From contig JBNMHA010000001.1 in assembly GCA_050872545.1 (NCBI GenBank), forward strand, positions 4,047 through 68,046: a DNA stretch of 64,000 nucleotides, read 5' to 3'. Below the pieces are notes generated by a model that had not been told where the DNA came from, ran no database searches, and worked only from the letters and a program-made list of their open reading frames with translations. Position 1 is the first letter of the stretch; each line of letters starts with the position of its first letter. This stretch comes from Spirochaetales bacterium (lineage in GTDB: Bacteria > Spirochaetota > GWE2-31-10). Below are positions 1,319-21,030 of the stretch, one piece after another. The position numbers were made by a program, and so were the translations under genes.

Positions 1319-1326
1319 TTCTGTCT

Positions 1327-1490
1327 CCGTTAGAACTTAACGCAAAGAGCAATCGCTGCACCGTTCGGCGTTATTTGTTGTCTGCGGCTTCTGTCACACG
1401 AAAGTTCGCCTTTATTCCCGGAAGTCAACCCAATGTCTACTGAAAGTCGGTTCGTTTGCCCTTTCAGCCAAGCAGACATTGCGAGACTGG
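1327..1490 (-). repeat. Conserved 3'-end module, copy 2 of 4
   Basis: Nucleotide identity to the modules at 411-575, 2109-2275 and 3023-3190. Confidence 0.85.
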
Positions 1491-2100: not shown

Positions 2101-2108
2101 TTCTGCCT

Positions 2109-2275
2109 CCGTTAAAACTTAACACAAAGAGCGATCGCTGCACCGTTCGGCGTTGCATGTTGTCTGCGGCTTCTGTCACACGAAAGTTCGCCTTTGTTCC
2201 CGTAAATCAGCCCAATGTCTACCGAAAGTCGGTTCATTTCACCTTTCAGCCAAGCCCTCGCACCTAATGCCCCGA
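2109..2275 (-). repeat. Conserved 3'-end module, copy 3 of 4
   Basis: Nucleotide identity to the other three copies. Confidence 0.85.
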
Positions 2276-3014: not shown

Positions 3015-3022
3015 TTCTGCCT

Positions 3023-3190
3023 CCGTTAAAACTTAACGCAAAGAGCGATTGCTGCACCGTTCGGCGTTGCCTGTTGTCTGTGGCTTCTGTCACACGAAAG
3101 TTCGCCTTTATTCCCAGAAGTCAGCCCAATGTCTACAAAAAACCGATTCATTTCACCTTTCAGCCAAGCAGACATTGCGAGACTGGTTAT
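3023..3190 (-). repeat. Conserved 3'-end module, copy 4 of 4
   Basis: Nucleotide identity to the other three copies. Confidence 0.85.
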
Positions 3191-6800: not shown

Positions 6801-8392
6801 TGCTTTTGCGCTGGATTGTTTACTGATGTCAAAGTAATTACTGCTTCTTTTGATGATGTTTCGTTTAGTTTCGCTTCCAGTGCAAGGCTTTTGCTTTCAC
6901 CGGATTTCACTGCAAATAAATTTGTCTCGGCTGATATTTCAAGACCGGCGGATGATTCTGTTTCTACTTTGTACGTATCATCAACATCGCCGTTATTTGT
7001 TATATTTAGCGTCTGCCGAGTACTTTCATTCACCGCAACAAACAACGCATTATTTCCAGATATTGAAAAATCCGCATTGCTTGGGTTAAACGTAATAATG
7101 AAACTCTGCTTTTGTGCCGGATTGTTTACAGATGTCAAAGTAATTACTGCTTCTTTTGATGATGTTTCGTTTAGTTTCGCTTCCAGTGCAAGACTTTTGC
7201 TTTCACCGGATTTCACTGCAAATAAATTTGTCTCGGCTAATATTTCAAGACCAACGGATGGTTCTGTTTCTACTTTGTACGTATCATCAACATCGCCGTT
7301 ATTTGTTATATTTAGCGTCTGCCGAGTGCTTTCATTCACCGCAACAAACAGCACATTATTTCCAGATATTGTGAAATCCACGTTACTTGGATTAAACGTA
7401 ATGGTAAAACTCTGCTTTTGCGCCGGATTGTTCACTGATGTCAAAGTAATTACTGCTTCTTTTGATGACGTTTCGTTTAGTTTCGCTTCCAGTGCAAGGC
7501 TTTTGCTTTCACCGGATTTCACGGCAAATAAATTTGTCTCGGCTGATATTTCAAGACCGACGGATGATTCTGTTTCAACTTTGTATGTATCATCAACATC
7601 GCCATTATTTGTTATGTTCAGTGTCTGCTGAGTACTTTCATTCACTGCTACAAACAGCGCATTATTTCCAGATATTGTGAAATCCGCGTTACTTGGATTA
7701 AACGTAATGGTAAAACTACAGTTTTCATTTGAATCATTTTCCGAAACTGCGGTAATATCGACTTTGCCGATTCTTGATTCCGGCAGCATAACGCTGTAAT
7801 CTACAGTTTCATACTCTCCGGAAGAGATTTTAACTTCAGTTTTTGTCAACGTTAAGCTAACATTTTCACATACCGCCGACAGCGCATATTTATCCGAAAA
7901 TTTTCCGGTATTTCTTACAATGAAATTTCCGGTCAATTGTTTATTCACCGGCAAATACAAAGATGAATCTCCGATTATCTCAACTTTTGCCGGAGTAGAA
8001 ATATCTACAGTCAACAAAATTTCTTTTTTATTCGGACGAAAAGATTCCCCGCCTACGACAAATATAGCTGCCTTGTAACTTCCTTTTTTCAAAGCTTTTA
8101 CGCAAAATATCGCTTCTTTCTTTTCACGTGCATTTACAGAAATTTTTTCTGCAAACTCCAAGTTGAAGCCTTCAGATTTTTCTGCTGACAAATAAAAATC
8201 CTGCGAATAATCCTCTTGATTTTCTATAAATACAGAAAGCAATTGCTCTGTTTCCAACGGCATTTTTTTAAGCAGCTGATTTTCCGACAGTGCAAATTTG
8301 TACTCTCTGTGAGTTTTCACTTCGTTCCATTGTTCCTGCGTACAGCTGAAAATAAACAGCAGCATTATCGACAACAAACTATAGTATTTCAT
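3812..8392 (-). CDS. Giant surface lipoprotein (1526 aa): lipobox, Ig/CARDB-like region, 5.3 near-identical 102-aa tandem repeats, C-terminal alpha/beta-hydrolase (lipase/esterase-like) domain
   Basis: Signal peptide with lipobox IFSC. The unit FTITFNPSN...AQKQS is repeated. The C-terminal region carries HG (FTHGT) and the nucleophile-elbow GHSHG motif typical of lipase/esterase folds. The gene overlaps its neighbours in the operon. Confidence 0.6.
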   Translation of the reverse strand: MKYYSLLSIMLLFIFSCTQEQWNEVKTHREYKFALSENQLLKKMPLETEQLLSVFIENQEDYSQDFYLSAEKSEGFNLEFAEKISVNAREKKEAIFCVKALKKGSYKAAIFVVGGESFRPNKKEILLTVDISTPAKVEIIGDSSLYLPVNKQLTGNFIVRNTGKFSDKYALSAVCENVSLTLTKTEVKISSGEYETVDYSVMLPESRIGKVDITAVSENDSNENCSFTITFNPSNADFTISGNNALFVAVNESTQQTLNITNNGDVDDTYKVETESSVGLEISAETNLFAVKSGESKSLALEAKLNETSSKEAVITLTSVNNPAQKQSFTITFNPSNVDFTISGNNVLFVAVNESTRQTLNITNNGDVDDTYKVETEPSVGLEILAETNLFAVKSGESKSLALEAKLNETSSKEAVITLTSVNNPAQKQSFIITFNPSNADFSISGNNALFVAVNESTRQTLNITNNGDVDDTYKVETESSAGLEISAETNLFAVKSGESKSLALEAKLNETSSKEAVITLTSVNNPAQKQSFTITFNPSNADFTISGNNALFVAVNESTRQTLNITNNGDVDDTYKVETESSAGLEILAETNLFAVKSGESKSLALEAKLNETSSKEAVITLTSVNNPAQKQSFIITFNPSNVDFTISGNNALFVAVNESTRQTLNITNNGDVDDTYKVETEPSVGLEISAETNLFAVKSGESKSLVLEAKLNETSSKEAVITLTSVNNPAQKQSFTITFNPSNADFTISGNSSLSLPLNAEILTSIVIHNNTDIKDSYFISADSDFAQVKLSKNTAALNGKSHETIEVAVKLTEKKSTEVKIICSSANNPKVKREHVIKLNVVDADFSIQSNVGYYTKGVKSQIKVTVTNNAKQTDVICLRFENIPSFVQMDLKSTSVELAAGANMTLSFPYLVNADRDEEVTFDLIGVSTNVSSVRRAEGITLWELTSRLVSLAADEDTRKQIDLLDDTKKLQKTFRDNDYIKANETAMQIVAKLADFAGVEQKEPENDMYFIDADEPEVRIEVPQTPAIFSNNVGEFRIAATENAVRNACYQSGEPHSNNLFRIGDTEYYLQKNGQPYIPTKKFVKGVPLLDKNGNELCTSYFRYVKTVSIHMKSHTSSSNGSGYEHDTFREDLRKATEGYWALYVSSQKDSQGVTTSYTYKLYKDYSVVKFEVTEEADDSREFLSELDDVPTSRIVIFTHGTLFYKWVTEAKQHGNYYMFCENGEGNTAKFFKQPSVAKALNLDYSQNDKAYYFNWSGENNYEYRDAAAEALEKFIYDRVAANLFYCRASQIILIGHSHGVTVNNITMHNLQTDKMEKFASEIPFVVGLNGVGTSTADIGDNEKSNRDCFKFPNKTFNSLSGDKKVKMYNFYSNDDEIVPPAFDDGIIPPYNYSWEIALQIALAVTFLDFTYLTVQLIRLAACKISQEIHILYRDEAHFVDFSNNISIDGFISGAGRSYYDKNIEKYWYQIEKAIPLENSFTFGWDGFYDHQTTRIYCVFNDAMNEIDSNLMNDKLINLFD
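6100..7717 (-). repeat. In-frame tandem repeat array inside the giant lipoprotein gene: 306-bp unit, about 5.3 copies, more than 95% identical
   Basis: Plus-strand shadow ORFs in 6147..7680 recur with a 306-nt period. The protein repeat 'ITFNPSN(A/V)DF(T/S)ISGNN' occurs six times. Confidence 0.9.
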
Positions 8393-8939
8393 TTTCCCTC
8401 CTTATTGTGAAATCAACAACCTTACACTTAATAAAAGGACGATAACTTATTGAACTGACATAACCATTGCCGAAATATGTACTGGCAGATAAACATTGCT
8501 GCACAACAAACGGATAAACAGATAAGGCTTTGTATATTCTGTTATAAAATGAACTTTCCGATTCAGTCACCGGTTCAAATTTTCTGCTAAATGTTATCAA
8601 TTGATTTTCCCGATAGAATATTTCAATTCCGTTGTCTTCACCGTAAACCATACACGGAAGCTTCTTAGGTGTTCTGTTCAATCGATACAAACTGCCGCTT
8701 TCAGAAATAAAAATAAGTTCTTGTTTTGAAAGTCCGTTTACATCGTAAATGTCATTAGCCTGATTTACTAACTTTACAGATGTCAAAGTTTCTTCATCGA
8801 CTTCACTTTCAATTTTTGCCGTATTGTCCACTTGTACTGTAACATTGTCTTCTTCCTGCAAAGTTTTATGGCTTTTCCAAGTACACCCGACATTGATGGC
8901 CACAAAAAGCAGCACAATTATTAACTTAGAAAAAATCAC
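8379..8939 (-). CDS. Hypothetical lipoprotein
   Basis: ORF of 186 aa with signal peptide and Cys (INVGC). Its start and stop overlap the flanking genes, consistent with operon coupling. Confidence 0.5.
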   Translation of the reverse strand: MIFSKLIIVLLFVAINVGCTWKSHKTLQEEDNVTVQVDNTAKIESEVDEETLTSVKLVNQANDIYDVNGLSKQELIFISESGSLYRLNRTPKKLPCMVYGEDNGIEIFYRENQLITFSRKFEPVTESESSFYNRIYKALSVYPFVVQQCLSASTYFGNGYVSSISYRPFIKCKVVDFTIRRENEIL

Positions 8940-10300
8940 ATTTCCTCCCCATAAAAAAAATTAATCTGATAAACAGCAAACTCGTATTTCGTATCGAGAG
9001 TTTTCTTCCTTGCTTCGATTATCCGTTCAATTGCATTTTTTATTTCGTATACTTCGATAAGCCCTTTCTGAAATGCCTCTGTAACTTCCCGATACTCTTC
9101 TTCCGACAATTTTTCATACGCTTCTAACGTTCTTATTTTTTTTCTGTAGTTTTGAATTTGTTTTGTATGCAAGGCATTTTTGTATTCTTTGATTTCTTGA
9201 TGTTCTTGAAGTTCATACTGAAGTTTCTTCTGCTCTTTCCTCAAGTCGCACAATCGCAGCTGTTGTTTGGAGAACGGTAAGGAAAAATTCAAAGGCATTT
9301 TTACAACGAAATTCAAGCTTCCGACTTTGTCATTCCAATATTTGCCGCTATTTTCAAACCAATCTCCTAACCAAGGATTGCGTGTATAACTGGGTGAAAA
9401 CAAGTAATTTACTTGAAGTGACGGAATGAAATGCGCAATTTCTTCCGCAATATTAAGTTTCAGTTCTTTTTGCCGCAACGAAAATTCTTCTTCACGATAT
9501 TCAGAACATGTTTTTTCATCAAAAAAACTCTCATTATGAAAATCTTCTAATTCGCCTGAAAAATAAATATTTTCTTCTCCAAGCAAAAAATTAAGGAACA
9601 TAAGACTTTTCTCATACAAGTTTTCTGTTTCATCAACTTCCTGTTGCAATTCATTTTTTTTCAATTCTGAATAAATAGTTCTGTATTTTTCCAAGCGATC
9701 ATCACATAAAGCCAGCATATTGCAAAATTGTTTTGTCAGTTCTGCATGTTCATTTGTCACTGCATTTTTTGCTTTATGATAAAAAACAGCAGCACAACCG
9801 GATAAAGCTGTTTTCCTAATTTCATTTTCAGCAAGTTCAAATGAAAGTTTGTTCTGCTTTAATAAATTTAACTTACTGCACAGTGACAAAATTGAAGCCA
9901 CGTTAAATTCCCAAACTGAATATGCTGTAAAATTTACACTCCAACGAGGTTTGGTCACATCAAAAGAGTTTGGGATAACTTCATCATATCCATTTGCAGT
10001 CGCACTTAATAAGTTAGGAAGCAATTCTTCGTATGTCGTTGTTCTGTCTTTATCACTCAAATTAGAACGAGAAAAGCTGCCGCATATTCCAAACTGCGGA
10101 ATAAACTCATCAAAACTTTCGATTATTTTCAGTTTTTTCTGCAATATGCTAATATTTTTTTGTTTAAGCGAAAGGCAATGTTTAACTGCCGTATCTGCGG
10201 CTTCTGCCGGAGTGATTAAAACATTTGCTCCGGCAAAAACTACAGAAAACAGAAATACTGAAATTGAAATAAGTTTTTGCATCGACAAAAATTCTTTCAT
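8936..10300 (-). CDS. Secreted coiled-coil protein, possibly a TolC-like outer-membrane channel
   Basis: ORF of 454 aa with a signal peptide. Long helical heptad-like segments alternate with short beta-like stretches, resembling the outer-membrane efflux protein architecture. The family assignment is uncertain. Confidence 0.35.
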   Translation of the reverse strand: MKEFLSMQKLISISVFLFSVVFAGANVLITPAEAADTAVKHCLSLKQKNISILQKKLKIIESFDEFIPQFGICGSFSRSNLSDKDRTTTYEELLPNLLSATANGYDEVIPNSFDVTKPRWSVNFTAYSVWEFNVASILSLCSKLNLLKQNKLSFELAENEIRKTALSGCAAVFYHKAKNAVTNEHAELTKQFCNMLALCDDRLEKYRTIYSELKKNELQQEVDETENLYEKSLMFLNFLLGEENIYFSGELEDFHNESFFDEKTCSEYREEEFSLRQKELKLNIAEEIAHFIPSLQVNYLFSPSYTRNPWLGDWFENSGKYWNDKVGSLNFVVKMPLNFSLPFSKQQLRLCDLRKEQKKLQYELQEHQEIKEYKNALHTKQIQNYRKKIRTLEAYEKLSEEEYREVTEAFQKGLIEVYEIKNAIERIIEARKKTLDTKYEFAVYQINFFYGEEM

Positions 10301-10315
10301 TTCATCACACCCTGT

Positions 10316-10669
10316 TTAGTCGGCACGAACAAAAGTGCCCCAACTCCAAAGTGTCAACTTTCCGCCTGACAATGTGTAAGCGTAAGTTTCATCTTTGTCT
10401 TTAAAGTTGATTATACCGCTTTCGGATTTATCAATTTCCCACTCAAAGCTATTTGAAACCGAACCATTTTTGTAAACATAGTCCACTTTCATTTTGTCAT
10501 TAGATGTGAATTCCAGATTATATTTCTCATACACAGAAAATTCTTTGCTATCAAAATCTTCCGGAACCCATTTCCCAATAAGTCCGCATTCCACTCCAGC
10601 AGGAGTACAGCTCGCCAATGCAAAAATAAATGCAACAGTAATAAAACAAATTTCTAATCCTCTTTTCAT
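10316..10669 (-). CDS. Small 'GKW-motif' lipoprotein (117 aa), first gene of operon 1
   Basis: Lipobox LASC followed by the motif TPAGVECGLIGKW. It is paralogous to 11321..11701 and 63449..63814. Confidence 0.6.
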   Translation of the reverse strand: MKRGLEICFITVAFIFALASCTPAGVECGLIGKWVPEDFDSKEFSVYEKYNLEFTSNDKMKVDYVYKNGSVSNSFEWEIDKSESGIINFKDKDETYAYTLSGGKLTLWSWGTFVRAD

Positions 10670-10706
10670 AGTTAATATCCTTGTAATAAAATTTCACGAA
10701 ACTGTA

Positions 10707-10738
10707 AGATTAGCCGGCTATTGCAATCTCGCTGTCAA
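10707..10738 (-). promoter_or_regulatory. Candidate sigma70-like promoter for operon 1
   Basis: On the minus strand: TTGACA (10738-10733), a 20-nt spacer, then TAATCT (10712-10707), about 40 nt upstream of the RBS AAGGAT and the ATG at 10669. The spacer is longer than optimal. Confidence 0.25.
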
Positions 10739-10770
10739 GTTTTATCGTTCATGAAAAGCGATTTTGCAAG

Positions 10771-10815
10771 AAAAAAAACTTCCCGGAGGTCAAGAAAATT
10801 CTCCGGGAAGTTTTT
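10771..10815. terminator. Bidirectional intrinsic terminator (A8, CTTCCCGGAG, 12-nt loop, CTCCGGGAAG, T5)
   Basis: Perfect 10-bp GC-rich inverted repeat flanked by an A-run and a T-run. It separates operon 2 and the repeat element from the operon-1 promoter. Confidence 0.65.
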
Positions 10816-11027
10816 CTTGGTAAATTTTTTGTTAGTTATATTGATTTTGAAATTAATACAAGTATAATTAAAATTTTTTGTTATAAACAAATCAAGACTT
10901 TATACCAATTTAGTATTATTTACAAAATGTGTGGCAATTTTCTTTGCAGGGGACAGACCTCAATTCTAACTTGGGATACAAGTAAATTCGGGTGGATATG
11001 AAAGTAAACTAAGGGACCGACCTATAT

Positions 11028-11205
11028 GCTATTTTAGAATTAAAGTCTGTCCCTTGTGTTAATGAGATCTCCGGGTCAAGCCCGAAGATGACATAAAATT
11101 TCACAAATTACTTTGTTATTCCCTAACTTGCGTCCTATTGTCATTGCCCGGTGCGACCGGATAATGACATTAGGCTTGTATGGTGTCAGACCTATATGCT
11201 ATTTC
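11028..11205. repeat. 187-bp structured repeat unit (1.1 copies) with internal inverted repeats
   Basis: Contains GGTCTGTCCC pairing with GGGACAGACC upstream, the hairpin ATCTCCGGG-tcaag-CCCGAAGAT, and CCTATTGTCATT-19nt-AATGACATTAGG. Confidence 0.7.
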
Positions 11206-11320
11206 CACATATAAATACAGCGCAAAAAGCATAAAAAAAGCGGCAAGAAATTTTTGTTTCTTACCGCTTATTTCAAAAAGGATTATGTTTATTATTTGCC
11301 GACAAAACAATTTTCCAAAA

Positions 11321-11701
11321 TTAACATGTTCGTTCTAAAACTAAAGATCTGGAGAAAATTAAGTATCCGCCGCTTAAAATACATGAAATTTCTCCGTCCG
11401 GAAGTCCTTTGCCCTCACCGTCAATACACTCAATTTCCAAAATTGTTCCATTAAAAATGCAGCCATCGCCTTCTTTACTTGTACCTGTTATTTTATATAC
11501 CTCAGAAAGTTTTTCACTTCCGTTATCCCAAGAATAAACGAAAGTATCATCTGCATAAAATTCTATAATATACGTAACTCCGCCGGATTCGCCGCTCCAT
11601 TTTCCCAATAAATCGCAACTAACGCCAGCACAAGTACACGATATTATCAAAAAAAACAAAGCAACCGGCAGCAATGCAAAAAATCCAATTTTACTTTTCA
11701 T
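11321..11701 (-). CDS. Small 'GKW-motif' lipoprotein (126 aa), last gene of operon 2
   Basis: Lipobox IISC followed by TCAGVSCDLLGKW. Its signal-peptide coding sequence and RBS are identical to those of 11711..12712. Confidence 0.6.
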   Translation of the reverse strand: MKSKIGFFALLPVALFFLIISCTCAGVSCDLLGKWSGESGGVTYIIEFYADDTFVYSWDNGSEKLSEVYKITGTSKEGDGCIFNGTILEIECIDGEGKGLPDGEISCILSGGYLIFSRSLVLERTC

Positions 11702-11710
11702 TGTCGTCTC

Positions 11711-12712
11711 CTAAATCAAAGAACATGTCAAATTTATCATGTTATATTTGTATACTTTATCTGTCCAAGCTTGAATTATGTAGATATTATCCCCATGCCG
11801 TGCGCTATCCGTATCTTTCGTTTTTATTGAAACTCTATCTTTTTCAACACCGCTTCTATCGAATGTTACAATCGATTTATTTGTTAAAAGAGTAATGAAA
11901 TCATCATTTTGATAGAGTGAATTCACACTAAAAAAGCCTCCTGTAGAAAAAACTTTTTCTACATTTAAAACATTATCAATTACCGAATAACGAAACAGAT
12001 CAACATCACGCCTTTCTCTTTCCCCATTATTTTCAGATACAACAAAAGTTCCGAGCAAATAAGGATCATAAAAATCTAAATACAAATAATCTTTATCAAA
12101 GCACGATAAATCAACAAATTTCTTTTGTGTAAGGTTATAAATATCGCTATACCCTAAACTATAAAGCAGAGAAACATAAACATTATTACCATTATGACCG
12201 GCAAATTTAGTCAAATACATTTCGCCTCCCGGCAGTGTCTCGTAGCGTATCTTTCTTGTTTGTGCATTATACACCGCATAAGTCACTGGAACATCTTTGA
12301 ATCCGGGAACACATGGTGCAATCCAAAGTTCATTATTTACATACGTAAAACATTCTGCAACTCTGGAAAGTTCAAAATGGAGTTCCTGTACTTTCCCGGT
12401 CAACGGATTCAAGCGGGCTATACGACCGTTTACAGTTAAAAAATACACGCTTTCATCAAAACTTTTATCATAAAAGAAATCACAAATTATACTTTCCGGG
12501 AATTTATACGTATATATCGCAGTTTCGGTTTTGGTATCGAAAGCAATTATTTTATGGCAATTGTCATCCCATCGGGATGTTAAGAAAATTGTATTTTCAT
12601 CAACATTTATTGGTTTGAAAGACGGAAACGGTGACAACGGTGCTTCACAAGACGTTATCAAAGAAAACAAAGCAAGCAGCAGCAATGCAAAAAATCCAAT
12701 TTTACTTTTCAT
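11711..12712 (-). CDS. Paralogous lipoprotein family member 1 (333 aa)
   Basis: Lipobox ITSC. The N-terminal ~180 aa and the C-terminal RHGDNIYIIQAWTDKVYKY.MINLTCSLI are shared with 12722..13735. A 9-nt intergenic gap precedes it. Confidence 0.6.
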   Translation of the reverse strand: MKSKIGFFALLLLALFSLITSCEAPLSPFPSFKPINVDENTIFLTSRWDDNCHKIIAFDTKTETAIYTYKFPESIICDFFYDKSFDESVYFLTVNGRIARLNPLTGKVQELHFELSRVAECFTYVNNELWIAPCVPGFKDVPVTYAVYNAQTRKIRYETLPGGEMYLTKFAGHNGNNVYVSLLYSLGYSDIYNLTQKKFVDLSCFDKDYLYLDFYDPYLLGTFVVSENNGERERRDVDLFRYSVIDNVLNVEKVFSTGGFFSVNSLYQNDDFITLLTNKSIVTFDRSGVEKDRVSIKTKDTDSARHGDNIYIIQAWTDKVYKYNMINLTCSLI

Positions 12713-12721
12713 TGTCGTCTC

Positions 12722-13735
12722 CTAAATCAAGGAACATGTCAAATTTATCATGTCATATTTGTATACTTTATCTGTCCAAGCTTGAATTATGTAGATATTA
12801 TCCCCATGCCGTGCGCTATACTCACCTTTTATGTCTATTGGAACTCTAGCTTTCTCTCTATAATTATTTTTTTTATCAAAAGCAATGAATGAATCTGTAG
12901 TCACATAAACTATAACATCATCATTTTGATAAAGTGAATTCATATTATAGAAACCATCAGCAAAAAAAAGTTTTTCTACACTCAACACATTATCAGTTAT
13001 CGAATAATGAAATACATCTGTATTACGCTGATTTTGCTGTTCATTCCAATGTACACAAACCATATAAGGGTCATAAAATTCTATACAAAAATAGCATTTA
13101 TTTTCCTTATCCAAACAGGATATATCCACACCTTTTTTCTGTGTAATATTGTAAATCTCTGCCGGCTGCTGTGAAATATAAAATGAAATATATGTATTTC
13201 CATTTTCATATCCGGCATATTCTTCACAAAAGATTACCCCACTCGGCAACGTTTCGTAGCGTACCTTTCCTGTTTGGGCATTATACACCGCATAAGTTAC
13301 CGGAACATCTTTGAATCCGGGAACACACGGTGCAATCCAAAGTTCATTATTTATATACGTAAAACGTTCTGCAACTCTGGAAAGTTCAAAATGAAGCTCT
13401 TGTACTTTCCCGGTTAACGGATTCAATCGGGCTATACGACCATTGAGAGTCAGAAAATACATGCTTTCATCAAAACTTTTGTCATAAAAGAAATCATAAA
13501 TTATACTTTCCGGGAATTTATACGTATATATCGCAGTTTCGGTTTTGGTATCAAAAGCAATTATTTTATGGCAATTGTCATCCCATCGGGATGTTAAGAA
13601 AATTGTATTTTCATCAACATTTATTGGTTTGAAAGACGGAAACGGTGACAACGGTGCTTCACAAGACGTTATCAAAGAAAATAAAACTAACATCGGCAAT
13701 AACAACAACACAAGAAAATTTATTCCGCTTTTCAT
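12722..13735 (-). CDS. Paralogous lipoprotein family member 2 (337 aa)
   Basis: Mosaic relative to 11711..12712. The RBS AAGGAG lies upstream. Confidence 0.6.
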   Translation of the reverse strand: MKSGINFLVLLLLPMLVLFSLITSCEAPLSPFPSFKPINVDENTIFLTSRWDDNCHKIIAFDTKTETAIYTYKFPESIIYDFFYDKSFDESMYFLTLNGRIARLNPLTGKVQELHFELSRVAERFTYINNELWIAPCVPGFKDVPVTYAVYNAQTGKVRYETLPSGVIFCEEYAGYENGNTYISFYISQQPAEIYNITQKKGVDISCLDKENKCYFCIEFYDPYMVCVHWNEQQNQRNTDVFHYSITDNVLSVEKLFFADGFYNMNSLYQNDDVIVYVTTDSFIAFDKKNNYREKARVPIDIKGEYSARHGDNIYIIQAWTDKVYKYDMINLTCSLI

Positions 13736-13926
13736 CGATTCTCCTTAGTGATAGGGGATGTCTAATAAGTTTAAGTCCTAGAGGTCATTGAGCCCGTCGA
13801 AATGACCAAATGTGGTTTCGATATAACCAAAAACTAAAGTTTTTGGCTTGCTCAAACATCGCATTTTCAACTTTTAGGACATTCCCTTTATTTAGTAACT
13901 GTTTGATACACAATTTGAAAATTACG

Positions 13927-14949
13927 CTATTCAATAACTTTCATTGAAAAATCTTCCAAATTGATTTTATAAATACTGTGAGTATCACCTTTTACGCAGT
14001 AAAAGAATCCGTCACGAACATAATTGGAAAAAGAAGATTGCATATTTAAAGAATTTGATTTTTTAAGTCTATAATTATCTTTAGCATAAACCAGAAAACT
14101 TCTTTTTTCAGGATCTATACCATAAACAAATAGATATTTTTCTGTTTCATATACTCCCTGAACTCTAATTTTTTTAATATTAAGAAGTTTATTTACTTCT
14201 AATTTTGGCACTATTGATTTTATTTTATATATAAATACTTCATCTATACTGTCTGCTACTAAAAACCCATTGTAATAATCGTACCAAGAACATTTAACAG
14301 AATTATCCAATGACGATATGTCAAGTTTTTTCTTATCTGTATAATTATATATTTCAGCTTCATCCATATATAATGGCAAGAAAACTTTATCATCCATTTT
14401 AAAAGGTGTTGCATTTAACAAAATTCCTTCCGGCAATTCTTCATAACGATACGAATCGGTAGCCGGTGTATATACAAAATATTTTACAGGGGTATTTTTA
14501 AAACCCGGATAATTCGGACTTACCCACACTTCGTTATTGAAAATTACCAAATCTTCCGGTTCTCTGATTAATTCTATATTTTTAATTTCACTCATTTTCC
14601 CGGAAGTTACATCCAGTTTTGCTGTTCGCCCATCCCCAAATATTACATATATATTGTTTTTATCTGTTTCATAATCATAGGCTACTTCATAAAGACTTAA
14701 ATTTTTATCGAATACATATCTGTAAAGAAGCTTTTGTTTATCTGAATCAAATACAATTATTTCATTTAATTCACTGCCATCTTTTGCGGTAGAGCCATCA
14801 CAATTATCAAAAACAAAAATATTTTCATGCATTTCTATAGATACATCAAACGTCGGCAAAGGAACATCTTTTTGGTTTTCCTCCATATTGCAGCCTACAC
14901 AACTTGTAAATAGACAGAATAAAGCTATGATTTTATATATAAATTTCAC
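13927..14949 (-). CDS. Paralogous lipoprotein family member 3 (about 341 aa from a GTG start)
   Basis: The ORF track starts at 14979, but AAGGAG followed by 6 nt and GTG at 14949 gives the typical signal peptide MKFIYKIIALFCLFTSC. The C-terminus ...KINLEDFSMKVIE is shared with the two upstream paralogs. Confidence 0.5.
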   Translation of the reverse strand: MKFIYKIIALFCLFTSCVGCNMEENQKDVPLPTFDVSIEMHENIFVFDNCDGSTAKDGSELNEIIVFDSDKQKLLYRYVFDKNLSLYEVAYDYETDKNNIYVIFGDGRTAKLDVTSGKMSEIKNIELIREPEDLVIFNNEVWVSPNYPGFKNTPVKYFVYTPATDSYRYEELPEGILLNATPFKMDDKVFLPLYMDEAEIYNYTDKKKLDISSLDNSVKCSWYDYYNGFLVADSIDEVFIYKIKSIVPKLEVNKLLNIKKIRVQGVYETEKYLFVYGIDPEKRSFLVYAKDNYRLKKSNSLNMQSSFSNYVRDGFFYCVKGDTHSIYKINLEDFSMKVIE

Positions 14950-14970
14950 TGTTTGTCTCCTTAGTGATAA

Positions 14971-14995
14971 CTCCCCCATAAAACAAGGGGGGGAG
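14971..14995. other. Intergenic GC hairpin with a homopolymer (C5, 9-nt loop, G7) immediately upstream of the RBS of the 13927 gene
   Basis: CTCCCCC-ATAAAACAA-GGGGGGGAG followed by TTTTATTT. A paralogous copy at 16148-16170 has G6. Confidence 0.7.
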
Positions 14996-15036
14996 TTTTA
15001 TTTAATGACTGCTTGATACACAATTTGAAAATTACA

Positions 15037-16128
15037 CTATTCAATAACTTTCATTGAAAAATCTTCCAAATTGATTTTTAAAACTGCCGGATTTTCTTCA
15101 CCTACAGAGTTTATTGTATAAACATATTTTCCAACTTGGTAAAATTGCTCCAAACTTATAGTCGGATTATATTTTTTCACATCTGGATAATGCTCCCTAA
15201 AAGAATCCAATATTTCGTTTGTTTCAGGATCATACTTTAGAATATCTTTATAAGCTTCGCCTGTATCTAAATACAAATAATCACCATACTCAAGATCTGC
15301 ATAACATACGACATCGAGTGTTTGCAGCGGCTTAGAAACTTTAAACTTTGATTCTCCAAATTCTTCAAGTTTGTACAACGTAGTTTTTGTTTCGTACATC
15401 ATTTTCTCTTCATTTCTTATTTTTTTTCTTTTTCCTACAATGCCTTTTTTGAAAAAAGAAACAAAATGAAAAGCCGTAACTGAATCATCGATTAAATCAG
15501 GAAAATAATCATTCAAATCGATATTCATATCTTTTTGCTTTGTCCAGTTATAAATATCTCTTTGTGTATATGCATTATAAACTGAATCCGCAGCTACAAC
15601 ATATATATCACCGTCATACTTAAAGGGAGAACCTAGAAATTTATACGGTTCTGAAGTAAGCTCTTCGGTTTGGTAATAATAACGATATATTTTATCATTA
15701 TGATTATCCATAAAAAGCAAGTTGTCACTTTCGAATTCAAACATAGAAACCGTTCCGCCCAATGTTGGTTCTCCAAAATATTTTATTTTAGCAGTAGCCG
15801 GATCAAACTCAGACAAACGTGCTAATTTTCTTGAATCCCTATGTCCATGATATACAAAATAGCATTTCTTCTGCTCCTTCACGTATTTAAAATCATGGGT
15901 AATGTTTTTATCTGGATCTAAATGATACCGCTTTACGATTCTATCTGTAGATAAATCAACTGCTAAAAATTGTCTGTTTTTTCCGCAATCAAAAAAGAAA
16001 TATATTGAATCAGTAACTTCTATAGGCTTAAATTCAGGAAATGAACCATCTATTTCTTCTGTACAGCAAGAAAATAAAACTAACATCGGCAATAGCAGCA
16101 ACACAGGAAATTTTATTCCGCCTTTCAT
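15037..16128 (-). CDS. Paralogous lipoprotein family member 4 (363 aa)
   Basis: Signal peptide ending LFSCC. It is about 75% identical to 16212..17309 and shares the C-terminus NPAVLKINLEDFSMKVIE. Confidence 0.6.
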   Translation of the reverse strand: MKGGIKFPVLLLLPMLVLFSCCTEEIDGSFPEFKPIEVTDSIYFFFDCGKNRQFLAVDLSTDRIVKRYHLDPDKNITHDFKYVKEQKKCYFVYHGHRDSRKLARLSEFDPATAKIKYFGEPTLGGTVSMFEFESDNLLFMDNHNDKIYRYYYQTEELTSEPYKFLGSPFKYDGDIYVVAADSVYNAYTQRDIYNWTKQKDMNIDLNDYFPDLIDDSVTAFHFVSFFKKGIVGKRKKIRNEEKMMYETKTTLYKLEEFGESKFKVSKPLQTLDVVCYADLEYGDYLYLDTGEAYKDILKYDPETNEILDSFREHYPDVKKYNPTISLEQFYQVGKYVYTINSVGEENPAVLKINLEDFSMKVIE

Positions 16129-16147
16129 CGATTCTCCTTAGTAATAA

Positions 16148-16170
16148 CTCCCCCATAAAACAGGGGGGAG
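16148..16170. other. Intergenic GC hairpin with a homopolymer (C5, 8-nt loop, G6) upstream of the RBS of the 15037 gene
   Basis: CTCCCCC-ATAAAACA-GGGGGGAG followed by TTTTATTT. Confidence 0.7.
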
Positions 16171-16211
16171 TTTTATTTAATGACTGTTTGATACACAATT
16201 TGAAAATTACG

Positions 16212-17309
16212 CTATTCAATAACTTTCATTGAAAAATCTTCCAAATTGATTTTTAAAACTGCCGGATTTTCTTCACCTACAGAGTTTATTGTATAAACAT
16301 ATTTTCCAACTTGGTGAAATTGCTCCCAACTTATAGGAGGGTTATATTTTTTCACATCTGGATAATGCTCCCTAAAAGAATCCAATATTTCGTTTGTTTC
16401 AGGATCATACTTTAGAATATCTTCATAAGCTTCACCGGTATTTAAATACAAGTAATTCCCATATTCAAAATTTTTATAACATCCTACATCAAGCACCTTC
16501 AACGGCTCGGAAACTTTAAACTTTGATTCTCCAAATTCTTCAAGTCTGTATAACGTAGTTTCAACGTCATAACGCATACTCTCATTATTTCTTGTTTTTT
16601 TCCTTTTCCCAACAATGCCTTTTTTGAAAAAAGAAATAAAATGAAAAGTTTCATTTGGAATATAATCATCAAGTAAATCAGGAAAATAATCATTTAAATC
16701 GATATTCATATCTTTTTGCTTTGTCCAGTTATAAATATCTCTTTGTGTATCTGAATCATAAACTGAATCTGCACCAACAACATATATATCACCGTCATAC
16801 TTGAAAGGAGACCCTAAATATTTATATGTTTCTGTAGTAAATTCACCTGTTTCATAATAATAACGATATATTTTATTCATATAATTATCCATAAAAAGCA
16901 AATAATCATCTTCAAGATTTAATGGAAAAACAAAACCTCCTAAAATCGGAACTTCAAAATATTTTATCTTTGCTGTAATTGGATCAAACTCTGCCAGCTT
17001 ATTCTTCCCCATTGCATCTCTATGTCCTAAATATGTGAAATAACATTTCTTTTGCTCCTTTATATAAATGAAATTATCAACAAGATTTTTATCCGGACTC
17101 AACTTGTATCTTTTAACAACTTTATCTGTAGATAAATCAACTGCTAAGAACTGTTTGTTTTTTTCACAATCAAAAAAGAAATACATTGAATCAGTAACTT
17201 CTATAGGCTTAAATTCAGGAAATGAGCCATCTATTTCTTCTGTACAGCAAGAAAATAAAACTAACATCGGCAATAGCAGCAACACATGAAAATTTATTCC
17301 GCTTTTCAT
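16212..17309 (-). CDS. Paralogous lipoprotein family member 5 (365 aa from the second ATG)
   Basis: The RBS GGAGAC lies inside the first ATG codons, which favours the start MKSGINFHVLLLL at 17309. It overlaps the upstream gene's stop. Confidence 0.55.
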   Translation of the reverse strand: MKSGINFHVLLLLPMLVLFSCCTEEIDGSFPEFKPIEVTDSMYFFFDCEKNKQFLAVDLSTDKVVKRYKLSPDKNLVDNFIYIKEQKKCYFTYLGHRDAMGKNKLAEFDPITAKIKYFEVPILGGFVFPLNLEDDYLLFMDNYMNKIYRYYYETGEFTTETYKYLGSPFKYDGDIYVVGADSVYDSDTQRDIYNWTKQKDMNIDLNDYFPDLLDDYIPNETFHFISFFKKGIVGKRKKTRNNESMRYDVETTLYRLEEFGESKFKVSEPLKVLDVGCYKNFEYGNYLYLNTGEAYEDILKYDPETNEILDSFREHYPDVKKYNPPISWEQFHQVGKYVYTINSVGEENPAVLKINLEDFSMKVIE

Positions 17310-18940
17310 TGTCGTCTCCATATCACAACATTAGTTTTTTTATTGTATATTTTTGTTCGACCATAATTCCACATGTAAAATCCTCCGGTAGATGTCCATT
17401 CCCATTTTCCTTTCCACCATTCCCACCATTTACCAGTCTTTTCCCATCTCCAATACCCAGTCGGAACCCATACACGGAACCAAGCATAACCATACTGGTC
17501 TGATGAAGAATCATAAATATCATCAGGAGTAATAATCCTTCCCACACAACCTCGAATAATTGCATGAGCAGGAAACAAAAGTAGAGCATCTAACCATACA
17601 AAAGATTGAAGAGCCGGATATTGATTTTTTACATCGGAATTCAAATCTATTCCTATACTTTTATATCCTGCATAAGGCATATAACTACAGTAAATATTTT
17701 TGGTTAAATCATATTTAAAATTATCATCATCTTCTTTGTCATTATATTTATTTACTGTATATGCTACAGCCCTTTCCATTTCTGTTTCAGAAGTACGTAT
17801 AGGTTCCAAAATTGCAATTCTTTCTCCATTAGTAAAATTTTTCAACGGTTCAAATGACGGATACCCTAAATGTTCAGGCATTCTGTCTCCCTGCAAATCA
17901 CCTTTTGATGTTTTAGGATACGCCGAGAAAACAAAACTTGTAGAATTCGTGGCATTTATCTTACCGTCTGCCATTTTCTTACCTCTTAAATCAATCAATC
18001 CAGCATGGTCGTATGTTCCATATATGCAGCCTTTACTTTTTAGTTTAGAAACCCTGCAAATAATTTGCCCTGTTTTCAATTTACCGTCTTTTATTTCTTC
18101 ATCCGTTATCAAGTTATTGCTATAATAACTGCCGCTGGAGCTGCTGCTTCGAGTTGCCATTGAATTTAGTTTTTTGTGATAGTTTTGAATCTTTTTAATG
18201 TCTATATTTTTATCCAATAAATCAGAGATTTCCATAACTTCATCTTGGTAATTCAAAAGTGCTAAAAAATGAACAAATGACGCTGCATTAACTTTCACTT
18301 CATTGTTTGCCAAAGTTGCTCTACTGTTTCTCGATTTTCTGTATGATAAATATTTTTTTATATTTAATTTTGTACTTCTGGAATTTGAATCATTATATAA
18401 TTCCATCATTGATAAATCTGCTTTAGCATCAACACTCTCATTAGCTGTTAAAATCAACTCTTCTTCAAAGAATTTTTTTTCAATCTCTTTCAACATCTCA
18501 CCTTCGGCAATTTTTGCCTGAATATAATCAGATGTTAAATCATCCTGATTTTTCAATTCCAGTGTTGTTAAATAGTGATATTCCACTTTTACATCATCAT
18601 TTGCACACGCTTCCTCAAACCCTATTTTTAATTCATCAGGCATACTCATATAGAAATCCAATAACTCTTCTTCTGCCTGAACTGTAACAAAATCTGAAGT
18701 TTCGTCTTCTTGTATTCCCCTACTTCTCCTACTTTGCGCAGACTTTATTTTTGTTAATAAATCATTTTCTAAAACTCGTTTATAATCTCTAGTTACGACT
18801 TCATTTTCTGAAATAATTTCTCTAACATCATTTTTTTCCGACACATTTTCTTTCTTCTCCGTGTTTGCCGCATCACAACCTGCGAATAATACAACTGCCG
18901 CCGATAAAACAGACAGACATAAAGCTTTACATCTTTTCAT
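17306..18940 (-). CDS. Lipoprotein (544 aa) with a possible papain-fold (NlpC/P60-like) region and a tryptophan-rich C-terminal tail, first gene of operon 2
   Basis: Lipobox FAGC. Candidate catalytic residues lie in the order Cys (YCSYM) then His (FPAHAI). The last ~45 aa contain 12 Trp (WFRVWVPTGYWRWEKTGKWWEWWKGKWEW...). The enzymatic assignment is speculative. Confidence 0.4.
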   Translation of the reverse strand: MKRCKALCLSVLSAAVVLFAGCDAANTEKKENVSEKNDVREIISENEVVTRDYKRVLENDLLTKIKSAQSRRSRGIQEDETSDFVTVQAEEELLDFYMSMPDELKIGFEEACANDDVKVEYHYLTTLELKNQDDLTSDYIQAKIAEGEMLKEIEKKFFEEELILTANESVDAKADLSMMELYNDSNSRSTKLNIKKYLSYRKSRNSRATLANNEVKVNAASFVHFLALLNYQDEVMEISDLLDKNIDIKKIQNYHKKLNSMATRSSSSSGSYYSNNLITDEEIKDGKLKTGQIICRVSKLKSKGCIYGTYDHAGLIDLRGKKMADGKINATNSTSFVFSAYPKTSKGDLQGDRMPEHLGYPSFEPLKNFTNGERIAILEPIRTSETEMERAVAYTVNKYNDKEDDDNFKYDLTKNIYCSYMPYAGYKSIGIDLNSDVKNQYPALQSFVWLDALLLFPAHAIIRGCVGRIITPDDIYDSSSDQYGYAWFRVWVPTGYWRWEKTGKWWEWWKGKWEWTSTGGFYMWNYGRTKIYNKKTNVVIWRRQ

Positions 18941-18977
18941 AATTAATATCCTTGTAATAAGATTTCACGAAATTGTA

Positions 18978-19009
18978 AGATTAGCCAGCTATTGCAATCT
19001 TATTGTCAA
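18978..19009 (-). promoter_or_regulatory. Candidate sigma70-like promoter for operon 2 (copy of the 10707-10738 element)
   Basis: TTGACA (19009-19004), 20-nt spacer, TAATCT (18983-18978), inside the duplicated module. Confidence 0.25.
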
Positions 19010-19041
19010 GTTTTATCGTTCATGAAAAGCGATTTTGCAAG

Positions 19042-19086
19042 AAAAAAAACTTCCCGGAGGTCAAGAAAATTCTCCGGGAAGTTTTT
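19042..19086. terminator. Bidirectional intrinsic terminator (copy of 10771-10815)
   Basis: A8, CTTCCCGGAG, loop, CTCCGGGAAG, T5. It would terminate the mrp-plus-repeat transcript. Confidence 0.65.
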
Positions 19087-19288
19087 CTTGGTAAATTTTT
19101 TGTTAGTTCTATTGATTTTGAAATTAGTATAATTATAATAAAAAGTTTTTAATTATCAAATAATTAAGATTTTATGCCTATTTAGTATTATTTACAAAAT
19201 GTGTAACAATTTTTTTGCAGGGGACAGACCTCAATTCTATTTTAAGATACAAGCAAATTCGGGTGAATATAAAATATACTAAGGGACA

Positions 19289-19671
19289 GATTAGTATCCC
19301 ATCTTGGGATTAAGGTCTGTCCCTTGTGTTAATGAGATCTCCGGGGCAAGCCCGAAGATGACACGGATTTTCACAAATCACTTTGTTATTCCCGAACTTG
19401 CTTCCTATTGTCATTGCCCGGCGTGATCAGATAATGACAATAGACTTGTATGGTGTCAGACCTATATGCTATTTCGGAATTAAGGTCTACCCCCTTGTGC
19501 TAATGAGATCTCCGGGTCTAGCACGAAGATGACGCGAAATTTCACAAATCATCTTGTTATTCCCGAACTTGCTTCCTATTGTCATTACCCGACGTAACCG
19601 GACAATGACAATAGACTTGCATAGTGTCAGATCTATATTCTATTCCGGAATCATGGTCTGTCCCTTATAAT
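19289..19671. repeat. Tandem array of the 187-bp structured repeat (units 19289-19475 and 19476-19660, plus a partial unit)
   Basis: Units are about 88% identical. Each carries the hairpin ATCT(C/T)CGGG-5nt-CCCGAAGAT and CTATTGTCATT-19nt-AATGACAATAG. Confidence 0.85.
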
Positions 19672-20892
19672 TTAATGACAACAGCCACCACTGCAACTGC
19701 CACCTTCATGACCGGAGCAAGTTCCTTCTCGGTCTGTCAATTTATTTTCTATATAAAGTTGAATAATCGACGAACATTTCCCGACACCTACGCCGCGAAA
19801 AAGTTTTATTCCGAAAGAACGGCAAATATTTGCAGCTTCATCACCCATTCCGCCTGCAATTATCACTTCTACTTTCTTTTCATTTTTCAGCCAAGCAATT
19901 ACATCAGCATGACTTCCTTTGATTACCGAAATCTCTTCTTCTGCCGCTACTGATTTTTGTTTTGTCGTATACAAAGTAAAATATTTTGTATGACCAAAAT
20001 GCGGATTCAGCAGACCATCTTCCGACGGAATTGCCACAACAATTTCTCTATTTGCAATTTCTTCAACTTTAGTCATAACATTCTTGCCAATTTGTGCCAT
20101 AGCTTTTCCTGCAGCGGTTTCTGCATAAAGCGTAACATAAGGTTTGCCTGCGTCCGTTGCATTTACAACCTGCGGTTCCAATGGAATTTTTCCCAATACT
20201 TCGGTACCAAAATCCTCTGCTGTTTGCAAAGTTCCATCAGTTTTAAAAATATCAACAGTTTCACCACAATGCGGACAAACAAAACCGGACATATTTTCAA
20301 CAATTCCTATTACAGGAAGATTCAGCATTCCGGCAAATTTCAATGACTTGCGAACATCCAGCAACGCAACCTGCTGCGGAGTAGAAACAATAACTGTTCC
20401 GGATACATCACCGATTGTCTGAATTACGGACAACGGCTCATCACCTGTTCCCGGCGGGCAATCTACAATTAAGAAATCAAGCTCCGGCCAAAAAATTTCA
20501 TCCAAAAACTGACGTATCACGCCATTTTTTGCCGGTCCGCGCCAAATAATCGGGTCATCGGGTGATTCTAAAATCGATGCAACTGTTACAACATACAAAT
20601 TTTCCTGAGTCGGAACTTGTATCGGAACAGGCAGCCCCTGTTCATTAGTTTTCAAGCGCATTCCCTCGATTCCTGTCATCTTAGCTACTGACGGTCCATG
20701 TACATCTACATCCAGTAATCCAACTTTTTTTCCCTGTGACGCAAGATAATACGCAAGATTTACACTAACCGTACTCTTGCCTACACCACCTTTTCCACTC
20801 ATTACTACAATTTTATGCTTCATCTTATTAAGATTTTCCTGCAAAAAAGACTGCTGCATATCTCCCATTTTTATCTCCTTCTTTAATATCAA
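19672..20892 (-). CDS. mrp: Mrp/NBP35-family Fe-S cluster carrier ATPase fused to a NifB/NifX-like (dinitrogenase FeMo-cofactor-binding) domain with a Cys/His-rich tail
   Basis: Walker A GKGGVGKST, the ParA/Mrp fold, a C-terminal DUF with AGGMGDEAANICRSFGIKL, and the terminal CSGHEGGSCSGGCCH. Confidence 0.7.
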   Translation of the reverse strand: MILKKEIKMGDMQQSFLQENLNKMKHKIVVMSGKGGVGKSTVSVNLAYYLASQGKKVGLLDVDVHGPSVAKMTGIEGMRLKTNEQGLPVPIQVPTQENLYVVTVASILESPDDPIIWRGPAKNGVIRQFLDEIFWPELDFLIVDCPPGTGDEPLSVIQTIGDVSGTVIVSTPQQVALLDVRKSLKFAGMLNLPVIGIVENMSGFVCPHCGETVDIFKTDGTLQTAEDFGTEVLGKIPLEPQVVNATDAGKPYVTLYAETAAGKAMAQIGKNVMTKVEEIANREIVVAIPSEDGLLNPHFGHTKYFTLYTTKQKSVAAEEEISVIKGSHADVIAWLKNEKKVEVIIAGGMGDEAANICRSFGIKLFRGVGVGKCSSIIQLYIENKLTDREGTCSGHEGGSCSGGCCH

Positions 20893-21030
20893 TGATATAA
20901 CCTGTTTTATTCATGCGTACTTTTTTCAATCTTTTATTACGCTTAACTTGTTTTTTAAAGTTCTGCCTCGATAAATAAAAAAGAACCTCCAAATTAATGG
21001 AGGCTCTGTTCAAATATTAACAGACTAAAT

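Follow-up and report, generated by a model that had tools for sequence, protein, structure and literature searches.

How can neighboring lipoprotein genes be almost identical at their boundaries and yet so different in their interiors? The question is raised by a tandem array in a 64,000-nucleotide (nt) stretch of DNA, here called the window, from an uncultured gut spirochaete, a metagenome-assembled genome (MAG) annotated at NCBI as "Spirochaetales bacterium". Eight consecutive open reading frames (ORFs), g7 to g0, are listed on its minus strand from 18940 down to 10316. A preliminary description of the locus had pointed to five paralogous lipoprotein genes, g2 to g6, and suggested that their repertoire is shuffled or expanded by recombination. 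The reading favored here, with a probability of about 0.7, is that the array consists of three fused modules with recombining junction cassettes, in which propeller lipoproteins stand beside a putative cysteine hydrolase. The eight genes, with the lengths of their products in amino acids (aa), are the following.

17306-18940, minus strand: g7, lipoprotein of 544 aa, lipobox LFAGC; first gene of the unit
16212-17309, minus strand: g6, 365 aa, predicted β-propeller-family lipoprotein of the g5/g6 subtype, lipobox LFSCC
15037-16128, minus strand: g5, 363 aa, mosaic paralogue of g6, lipobox LFSCC
13927-14979, minus strand: g4, 350 aa, second propeller subtype, lipobox LFTSC
12722-13735, minus strand: g3, 337 aa, third subtype (g2/g3), middle cassette type B, lipobox LITSC
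11711-12712, minus strand: g2, 333 aa, third subtype (g2/g3), middle cassette type A, lipobox LITSC
11321-11701, minus strand: g1, small lipoprotein of 126 aa with a GKW motif, related to g0, lipobox LIISC
10316-10669, minus strand: g0, Lipocalin_4-like lipoprotein of 117 aa, preceded by another copy of the g7 upstream region, lipobox ALASC

Each of the eight translations has an N-terminal signal peptide that closes with a lipobox cysteine, and the cysteine column is invariant (C25) in an alignment of 17 sequences. By the lipobox criterion, g2 to g7 as well as g0 and g1 are thus predicted lipoproteins, and the surface repertoire of the preliminary description is a putative one. The stop codon of g7 overlaps the start codon of g6 (ATGA), and the g6 ribosome-binding site (RBS), GGAGAC, sits in the last codons of g7 (WRRQ*). 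The genes g7, g6, g5, g4, g3, g2 and g1 probably form one operon, which would run from a promoter-like site to a hairpin that likely marks the end of the g7-g1 transcription unit.

19159-19132, minus strand: best promoter-like site of the region in a consensus scan, within the g7 upstream region
11238-11269, minus strand: intrinsic-terminator-like hairpin, 13-bp stem and T run, 50 nt past the g1 stop

Mosaic paralogues and their junctions

The products of g2 to g6 are paralogues by BLASTP, with significant E-values throughout. Those of g2 and g3 are 71% identical, whereas g4 shares only 26–29% with g2/g3 (E 1e-30 to 1e-37), g5/g6 share 23–27% with g3 (E 1e-14 to 1e-17), and g4 and g5 are only ∼23% identical. 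The array is therefore paralogous, as first described, but it is not one homogeneous expanding family; it comprises three old subtypes, g2/g3, g4 and g5/g6. The coordinates given in the preliminary description all hold, with small corrections.

Both close pairs, g2/g3 and g5/g6, are mosaics in sliding-window comparisons. Conserved ends around a diverged middle had been noticed in g2/g3, and the alignment now places them. The N-terminal half (residues ∼25–165, 94% aa identity) is 93–100% identical in DNA over ∼450 nt, from about 12676 to 12230, and holds an identical run of 128 nt (12667-12540). Across the middle (residues 166–300) identity is 42–67% in DNA and 43% in protein, and in the 3′ block, from 11821 to 11642, it is 90–98% in DNA across the final ∼35 codons, the 9 nt between the genes (which hold the RBS), and ∼60 nt at the start of the gene that follows. 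The g5/g6 pair had been taken to be about 75% identical over its whole length. Its overall identity is indeed of that order (78% aa and 84% nt, by BLASTP and alignment), but its mosaicism had been overlooked: the first ∼180 nt and the last ∼300 nt together with ∼70 nt downstream are 92–100% identical, and the interior is 58–80% identical. In each of five pairs tested, the longest identical runs (27–128 nt) exceeded those of all column permutations (0/5000).

The repeated segments were located by a repeat search and by self-BLASTN of the window. The type II signal-peptide, hairpin-plus-RBS and upstream-region repeats are additions to those listed before.

11636-11845, minus strand: junction cassette 1, copy a; last ∼35 codons of g2, stop, RBS AGGAGACGACA, first ∼60 nt of g1
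12647-12856, minus strand: junction cassette 1, copy b; g3 end, RBS, g2 start; 91% identical to copy a, 90–98% in the core
12227-12676, minus strand: homogenized N-terminal block of g2, counterpart in g3 at 13241-13690; 85–100% nt identical, proportion of synonymous differences (pS) 0–0.1 in the first half
13887-13978, minus strand: 3′ cassette 2, copy a; last 16 codons of g4 (KINLEDFSMKVIE), stop, 40 nt downstream
14997-15086, minus strand: 3′ cassette 2, copy b, at the g5 end
16172-16261, minus strand: 3′ cassette 2, copy c, at the g6 end
13675-13753, minus strand: signal-peptide cassette type II at g3; RBS and MKSGINF..LLLLPMLVLFS; 92% identical to 16068-16146 and 80% to 17249-17327
16068-16146, minus strand: signal-peptide cassette type II at g5
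17249-17327, minus strand: signal-peptide cassette type II at g6, with a type I RBS that is embedded in the g7 3′ end
14956-14991, minus strand: intergenic hairpin (CTCCCCC..GGGGGAG) and RBS cassette before g4; 94% identical to 16133-16168
16133-16168, minus strand: hairpin and RBS cassette before g5, flagged as terminator-like
18932-19644, minus strand: g7 upstream region, with the promoter-like site 19159-19132, a terminator-like hairpin and a 171-nt tandem element present 2.1 times (19309-19666)
10661-11203, minus strand: second copy of the g7 upstream region, before g0; 92% identical over 269 nt and 84% over 186 nt

The ∼150-bp junction repeat first seen at 11640-11800 and 12655-12815 is recovered as the two copies of cassette 1, aligned at 91% over 210 nt. 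The start that g1 was said to share with g2 is an identical run of 52 nt (11719-11668); the first 22 residues, in which alone g1 resembles g2, are 82% identical. Likewise, the second junction type is present at all three places where it had been seen, at 93–96% identity over 92 nt (E 1e-33 to 1e-35). Two RBS/signal-peptide cassettes can be told apart. Type I (GGAGAC-GACA-ATG AAA AGT AAA ATT GGA TTT TTT, encoding MKSKIGFF) heads g2 and g1, and type II (GGAGA-ATCG-ATG AAA AGC GGA ATA AAT TTT, encoding MKSGINF) heads g3, g5 and g6; at the g6 start a type I RBS is joined to a type II signal peptide. The ∼570-nt upstream repeat takes in the terminator-like hairpin, the best promoter-like site and the first three codons, and its two copies, in direct orientation, flank the g7-g1 block on either side. 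Besides the copies at g7 and g0, a third copy of this upstream region precedes a second large gene, g7b, in another strain (L015:7096-8024). The 171-nt element is rich in hairpins, with 2.1 tandem copies before g7 and a single copy before g0, and belongs to no Rfam family; Rfam searches over 9000-21000 returned chance-level matches only.

Are the conserved blocks young, or merely constrained? In both pairs, windowed Nei-Gojobori estimates of pS are 0.00–0.13 in the conserved blocks and 0.4–0.97 in the interiors, which are saturated. Since near-zero synonymous divergence lies right beside saturated interiors, the conserved blocks are young and not just constrained. Simple uniform divergence after duplication is ruled out by the heterogeneous synonymous divergence (dS). 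We also compared regional identities among g2 and g3, two proteins of another strain (P0001 and P0003), and three of a related species (P0002, P0004 and L003:4480). The N block (25–165) follows the genome, with 94–99% identity within species and 82–84% between species, and so does the C block (301–337). The middle (166–300), in contrast, follows its type across species: g3 and P0002 are 72% identical and g2 and P0004 56%, against 43% for g2 and g3 and 38% for g2 and P0002. Judged from these alignments, the ends bear the signature of concerted evolution, and the two middle cassettes that they enclose are old. On the synonymous-site evidence, the junction cassettes and N-terminal blocks are shown to be tracts of recent homologous exchange between paralogues. 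Because low pS marks the blocks, and ends cluster by genome and middles by type, gene conversion or unequal crossing-over is indicated rather than purifying selection alone.

The alternative is that the RBS, the intercistronic hairpin, the signal peptide and the last β-strand are each under strong purifying selection, with no recent recombination. Signal peptides and RBSs are functional elements, and the C-terminal motif YKI(N/S)(L/M)(E/D)DFS.x.VI is kept family-wide at the protein level. However, synonymous sites and noncoding spacer bases are just as identical (pS 0–0.1 against 0.4–0.97), the identity extends 40 nt beyond the stop codon, the conserved blocks cluster by genome and the interiors by type, and one gene body carries different signal-peptide cassettes in different strains. 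Constraint alone is already disfavored, and we give it hardly any credence.

Gene order in strains and related species

Strains and related species were compared through metagenome contigs retrieved by exact-protein look-up. The propeller family was not found in 185,579 GTDB species-representative genomes in two scans (with g3 and with a g4-type alignment), the exact g6 product had no match in the contig look-up by exact sequence, and the 23-nt junction core had no exact match in a metagenome scan. Three arrangements occur among contigs of this species: the order of the window, an order in which g2 and g3 are swapped with a chimeric signal peptide, and an insertion of ∼5 kb between g5 and g4. 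The first is represented by a contig from an independent sample (L016), whose sequence is colinear with window positions 15140-7344 (99.1% identity over 7.8 kb). The second is found in two contigs from two samples and two assemblers (L013 and L014), which read g4, g2-type gene, g3-type gene and g1; the gene bodies are 97–98% identical to g2 and g3 of the window, but their order is reversed. In these contigs the first gene after g4 carries the type I instead of the type II signal-peptide cassette, and their spacer aligns to that of the window with a gap of 23 nt. P0001 is a chimera of a g3 body and a g1/g2-type signal peptide. The third arrangement (L015) runs g7-g6-g5, a gene of 179 aa, a Peptidase_C11 gene, a TMEM164-like gene, a third copy of the upstream region, g7b, and a g4 that is 99.4% identical to that of the window. 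The insertion starts and ends at junction cassettes, and the spacer after g5 is homologous (86%) to the window spacer after g4. It was also observed that g7b in this contig (7935-9505) is split into ORFs of 135 and 389 aa, 99% identical to P0078, which is intact elsewhere (523 aa); the split g7b is either a frameshift pseudogene or an assembly error.

Recombination, as suggested in the preliminary description, is borne out by these comparisons: the junction identity survives proper alignment, and strains differ in gene order, gene content and chimeras. These results could be explained if the cassettes serve as portable homology arms for unequal crossing-over and gene conversion, by which gene bodies would be duplicated, deleted, permuted and given new signal peptides, while selection would keep the divergent interiors distinct. 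If the end points of a duplication lay in the parts of g1 and of an ancestral g3 that encode the signal peptides, the outcome would be the very arrangement observed, namely g3, a chimeric g2, and g1. Recombination between the post-stop cassettes after g5 and after g7b would have removed the 5-kb segment seen in L015, and duplication followed by loss could have permuted g2 and g3. In the related species, the number and order of modules likewise vary between samples. Two of its contigs carry a 37-codon ORF (L001:9895-10008 and L004:1573-1686) in which the last ∼85 nt of a large gene (of the gamma type, described below) are joined to a foreign start (MNKLL) that has its own RBS, and an intact propeller gene follows directly. 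By its sequence, this ORF is a deletion remnant of the gamma-type large gene.

Since the window itself comes from a MAG and its perfect repeats reach 104–128 nt, the array or its strain variants might be chimeric joins across repeats. Two contigs of 71–84 kb (L011 and L012) in fact stop inside the array, ∼40 nt past the g6 stop (window ∼16175); array repeats therefore break assemblies, and the propeller locus is systematically under-assembled. Nevertheless, the window order from the g5 end through g4, g3, g2, g1 and g0 is recovered at 99.1% over 7.8 kb in the independent sample, g7-g6-g5 is recovered in L015, L011 and L012, and the swapped g2/g3 order occurs in two independent samples assembled with different k. 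Furthermore, mosaics within genes cannot come from mis-joined contigs. An assembly artifact is therefore very improbable.

Could the array instead serve programmed antigenic or phase variation, with one expressed copy rewritten from the others within a population, either by conversion from silent cassettes as in vls or tprK, or through invertible or slipped-strand switches? Conserved flanks around variable interiors would fit, as would the runs of six to seven C and G in the intergenic hairpin, the length of which varies between copies. Against this, all copies are complete ORFs, each having its own RBS, start codon and lipoprotein signal, no promoterless partial cassette was seen, the neighborhood holds no recombinase or invertase gene and no inverted-repeat switch, and the middle cassette types are recognizable across species. 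Such a program is, in our judgment, barely plausible. Two specific candidates were rejected: a switch driven by a mobile element or recombinase, as no such genes lie in the neighborhood, and silent-cassette antigenic variation of the vls or tprK type, as all five copies are complete with RBS, ATG and signal peptide.

The large lipoprotein gene and its propeller partner

If junctions recombine, what is the unit that they join? In every locus with downstream DNA present, a gene of the propeller family directly follows a g7-like gene, which encodes a protein of ∼515–555 aa. The loci covered are the window, three same-species contigs (L011, L012 and L015), those of the related species (L001, L003, L005, L008-L010 and L025), a solitary pair (L019), two groundwater loci (L017 and L018), and L021, L022, L023 and L027. 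The large gene and the propeller gene overlap by 8 nt in L003 and L005. The large proteins fall into three clades, each preceding its own propeller type.

alpha clade: g7, P0067, P0071 and L019/P0074; followed by the g5/g6 type
beta clade: g7b/P0078 and proteins of 521 aa; followed by the g4 type
gamma clade: proteins of 515–516 aa; followed by the g2/g3 type and a lipocalin-like gene of 120 aa

In L015, g4 accordingly comes after the second large gene, g7b. The basic unit is a large g7-like gene followed by a propeller gene, sometimes with a small lipocalin-like gene, and it is conserved from groundwater to gut spirochaete-like contigs. The array in the window would then be three such units head to tail, joined at junction cassettes: g7 of the alpha clade with the two propellers of its type (alpha-D-D), g4 (C), and g3, g2 and the lipocalin-like g1 (B-A-lipocalin). 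The propeller gene would have been duplicated in two of the three units, and the beta and gamma large genes are absent. The large genes show a similar pattern: in the related species, the upstream region and first ∼340 nt of two large genes (692 nt in total, the 5′ cassettes of beta and gamma) are 84% identical, and the proteins are 44% identical. The conserved module of large gene and propeller gene and the proposed three-module origin of the array are new relative to the preliminary description.

The β-propeller fold, offered there as a guess, finds support in an AlphaFold2 model of g3. From a 14-sequence alignment, g3 was modeled as an all-β protein of 28 strands (predicted local distance difference test, pLDDT, 85.9; predicted template modeling score, pTM, 0.81), that is, a predicted 7-bladed β-propeller of seven four-stranded antiparallel blades. 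The products of g2 to g6 are predicted 7-bladed β-propellers of a small lineage-restricted family, and the divergent residues 166–300 would correspond roughly to blades 4–6, judged by strand order. The likeness of g3 to E. coli YncE (3vgz) and the Leptospira lipoprotein antigen Lp49 (3bws) is one of generic fold and not of family, because sequence identity is 7–13% and eukaryotic WD40 proteins score equally. None of g2 to g6 matched a family in Pfam, NCBIfam (at cut-offs), PADLOC or PHROGs. An exhaustive hidden Markov model (HMM) search of 1.84 billion (1.84e9) cluster representatives returned 44 related clusters at E ≤ 1e-3, and all inspected relatives are lipoproteins ending in the YKI.LEDFS..VI motif. 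Of the two small lipoproteins, g0 scores above the gathering cut-off of Pfam PF13648, Lipocalin_4 (26.3 against 22.4 bits, E 1.4e-5). The product of g1 has no direct PF13648 match and is related to g0 (37% over 70 aa, E 3e-8, BLASTP); its orthologues of 120 aa come after a g2/g3-type gene in the related species.

The large lipoprotein g7 has a helical N-terminal half (∼280 aa), a C-terminal domain with His312 and Cys418, and a Trp-rich tail. In the family alignment both residues are invariant, within the motifs YDHAG and YCSY. We took these motifs to resemble those of the permuted papain-like YiiX/YaeF family, and the protein was tested against E. coli yiiX. In a single BLASTP comparison (E 6e-4), the g7 C-domain aligned with YiiX over 207 columns, with His and Cys aligned and five motifs in register (TGQII/TGDII, YDHAG/YSHTG, PLKNF/PLKQW, YCSY/YCSE and ITPDD/VSPQA, g7 first). 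YiiX itself is a Peptidase_C92 protein (PF05708, 167.8 bits, E 2.9e-49). The g7 C-domain is thus probably a divergent YiiX/YaeF-type (permuted papain-like, Cys/His) hydrolase. The tail (residues ∼482–544; window 17306-17500) is rich in Trp and Lys (WFRVWVPTGYWRWEKTGKWWEWWKGKWEWTSTGGFYMW) and conserved in the alpha clade. It is predicted with low confidence to form long β-hairpins, and may be a membrane- or glycan-binding element.

We suppose that a propeller has its cognate large lipoprotein as partner or as target, either in the periplasm or on the cell surface. The pairing of the modules therefore makes a role as partner or inhibitor of the hydrolase as plausible as that of a variable surface antigen. 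This leads to an alternative for the functional half of our reading only, with the recombination mechanism unchanged, in which the propellers are cognate inhibitors, immunity-like proteins or specificity subunits of an exported YiiX-like cysteine hydrolase, and the extra copies g5, g4, g3 and g2 are duplicated or orphaned partners, kept like orphan immunity genes in polymorphic toxin loci. Consistent with such a role, the adjacency of g7-like and propeller genes is strict at all loci with downstream DNA, in gut and groundwater samples alike; the two genes are translationally coupled or overlap at the start of the second (ATGA in the window, 8 nt in L003 and L005); the three large-gene clades diverged together with the three propeller types; and orphan propeller genes stand beside a deleted large gene. 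On the other hand, no PADLOC model and no toxin or immunity Pfam family was matched (among known defense and toxin-immunity models, PADLOC gave no match with E below 0.05, and PHROGs reached chance level only), no secretion-system or toxin-delivery domain is recognizable, and the catalytic assignment of g7 is weak. A stable envelope complex would fit equally, both partners having lipoprotein signals. This role is unlikely, though it deserves consideration. A bolder form of it, which we regard as more doubtful still, is that the YiiX-like hydrolase and the propeller make up an undescribed envelope system of enzyme and inhibitor (in toxin/immunity style) or of enzyme and specificity subunit, with three co-diverging cognate pairs in gut spirochaetes. 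Tandem and orphan propellers would then be protective or specificity partners, blades 4–6 the recognition surface, and the cassettes a means of exchanging partners between strains.

Several results weigh against the reading of three fused modules beside a cysteine hydrolase. As for the hydrolase, PF05708 had no match at E ≤ 5 for 11 members of the g7 family or at E ≤ 10 for five further relatives, so that its threshold is not reached, and g7 had no match in Pfam, NCBIfam, PADLOC or PHROGs. An hhalign comparison of the g7 family with single-sequence YiiX gave a probability of 0.3%, PDB profile searches with the full g7 family and with a three-clade C-domain alignment gave chance matches only, and the AlphaFold2 model of g7 is poor (pLDDT 46). 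As for the modules, tblastn found no remnant of the beta or gamma large genes in the window array, and that they were lost, as opposed to never having stood at this site, is deduced from other strains only. The operon rests on consensus scans in which promoter-like sites are not enriched over shuffled sequence (52 against 47.9 expected). Finally, the strain contigs are all short-read, and identical repeats of 100–130 nt are near the assembler k (127–141), so that single joins may be wrong; wrong joins are argued against, because the variants recur independently.

Genomic setting and comparison with known systems

Downstream of the modules, a neighborhood recurs that comprises a secreted protein of ∼180–240 aa, a Peptidase_C11 (clostripain-like) protein and a TMEM164-like membrane protein (L015:4490-7114, L001:16615-19210, L022:5841-8661 and L026:621-2091). 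None is present in the 64-kb window. Conceivably, this neighborhood is linked with the YiiX-like gene, perhaps through remodeling of lipids or of the envelope. Elsewhere in the window lie the following genes.

413-3799, minus strand: another tandem family, without relation to the propellers; four secreted proteins of 301, 256, 300 and 257 aa, no Pfam match
3812-8392, minus strand: ORF of 1526 aa with many immunoglobulin (Ig)-like/fn3 domains and internal DNA repeats of ∼300 nt (about 6134-7717)
8936-10300: weak TolC-like OEP gene, adjoining the 1526-aa ORF

Alternate members of the four-gene family share an identical N-terminus of ∼40 aa and are only 47–50% identical overall, the same pattern as in the propellers, and the related species (L001-L003) has five to seven homologues upstream of its propeller array. 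Given the 1526-aa ORF and the OEP gene, the array sits in a stretch rich in envelope proteins.

The locus provides a clean worked example of how a spirochaete lipoprotein array may be built and rebuilt with short 5′ and 3′ cassettes as homology arms. The organism belongs to the poorly known gut spirochaetes (one source record is labeled gut metagenome), whose variable envelope proteins are candidate factors in contacts with host or phage and candidate markers for typing strains. The pairing within modules gives an uncharacterized family a testable partner, and may give the poorly understood YiiX/YaeF class a genetic context. As the array breaks assemblies, MAG gene content at the array should be treated with care.

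Tandem lipoprotein arrays are known from other spirochaetes. The PFam54 array of Borrelia varies from 6 to 11 copies by strain and species, with frequent duplication and loss and highly divergent variants at one locus (PMC11389397). Like PFam54 of B. burgdorferi sensu lato (CspA/BBA64-73, on lp54), the array described here consists of tandem paralogous lipoprotein genes on the same strand. The two share no sequence homology, however; PFam54 lies on a plasmid and has a documented host-interaction function, whereas the present array is chromosomal, tied to an upstream large gene, and known from sequence alone. PFam54 proteins are helical, and the propellers are predicted to be β proteins. A second parallel is the "upstream homology box" of the Borrelia Erp/OspE-F genes, in which divergent lipoprotein bodies stand behind a shared, near-identical upstream/promoter segment (PMC7002432). 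The upstream region common to g7, g7b and g0 and the shared RBS/signal-peptide cassettes resemble this arrangement. Erp loci are dispersed on cp32 prophage plasmids, however, in contrast to the single tandem chromosomal array here, and there is no homology between them. Junction cassettes at the 3′ end are not known from Erp loci.

In the BLASTP alignment with E. coli YiiX (YiiX/YaeF, PF05708), the g7 C-domain matches weakly but end to end, with His before Cys and the five motifs in register, and it falls below the Pfam threshold. YiiX lacks the ∼280-aa helical N-terminal half and the Trp-rich tail, and g7 is a predicted lipoprotein with a propeller partner. Polymorphic toxin and type VI effector loci offer a further parallel, with an enzyme gene followed by paralogous genes for small exported proteins, co-diverging pairs and orphan downstream genes. 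No toxin, immunity or delivery domain and no type VI secretion system (T6SS) context was detected here, however, and the likeness to toxin-immunity systems is one of logic only. The propeller family itself is uncharacterized, with no Pfam model, and the dynamics of its array match those of known spirochaete lipoprotein families.

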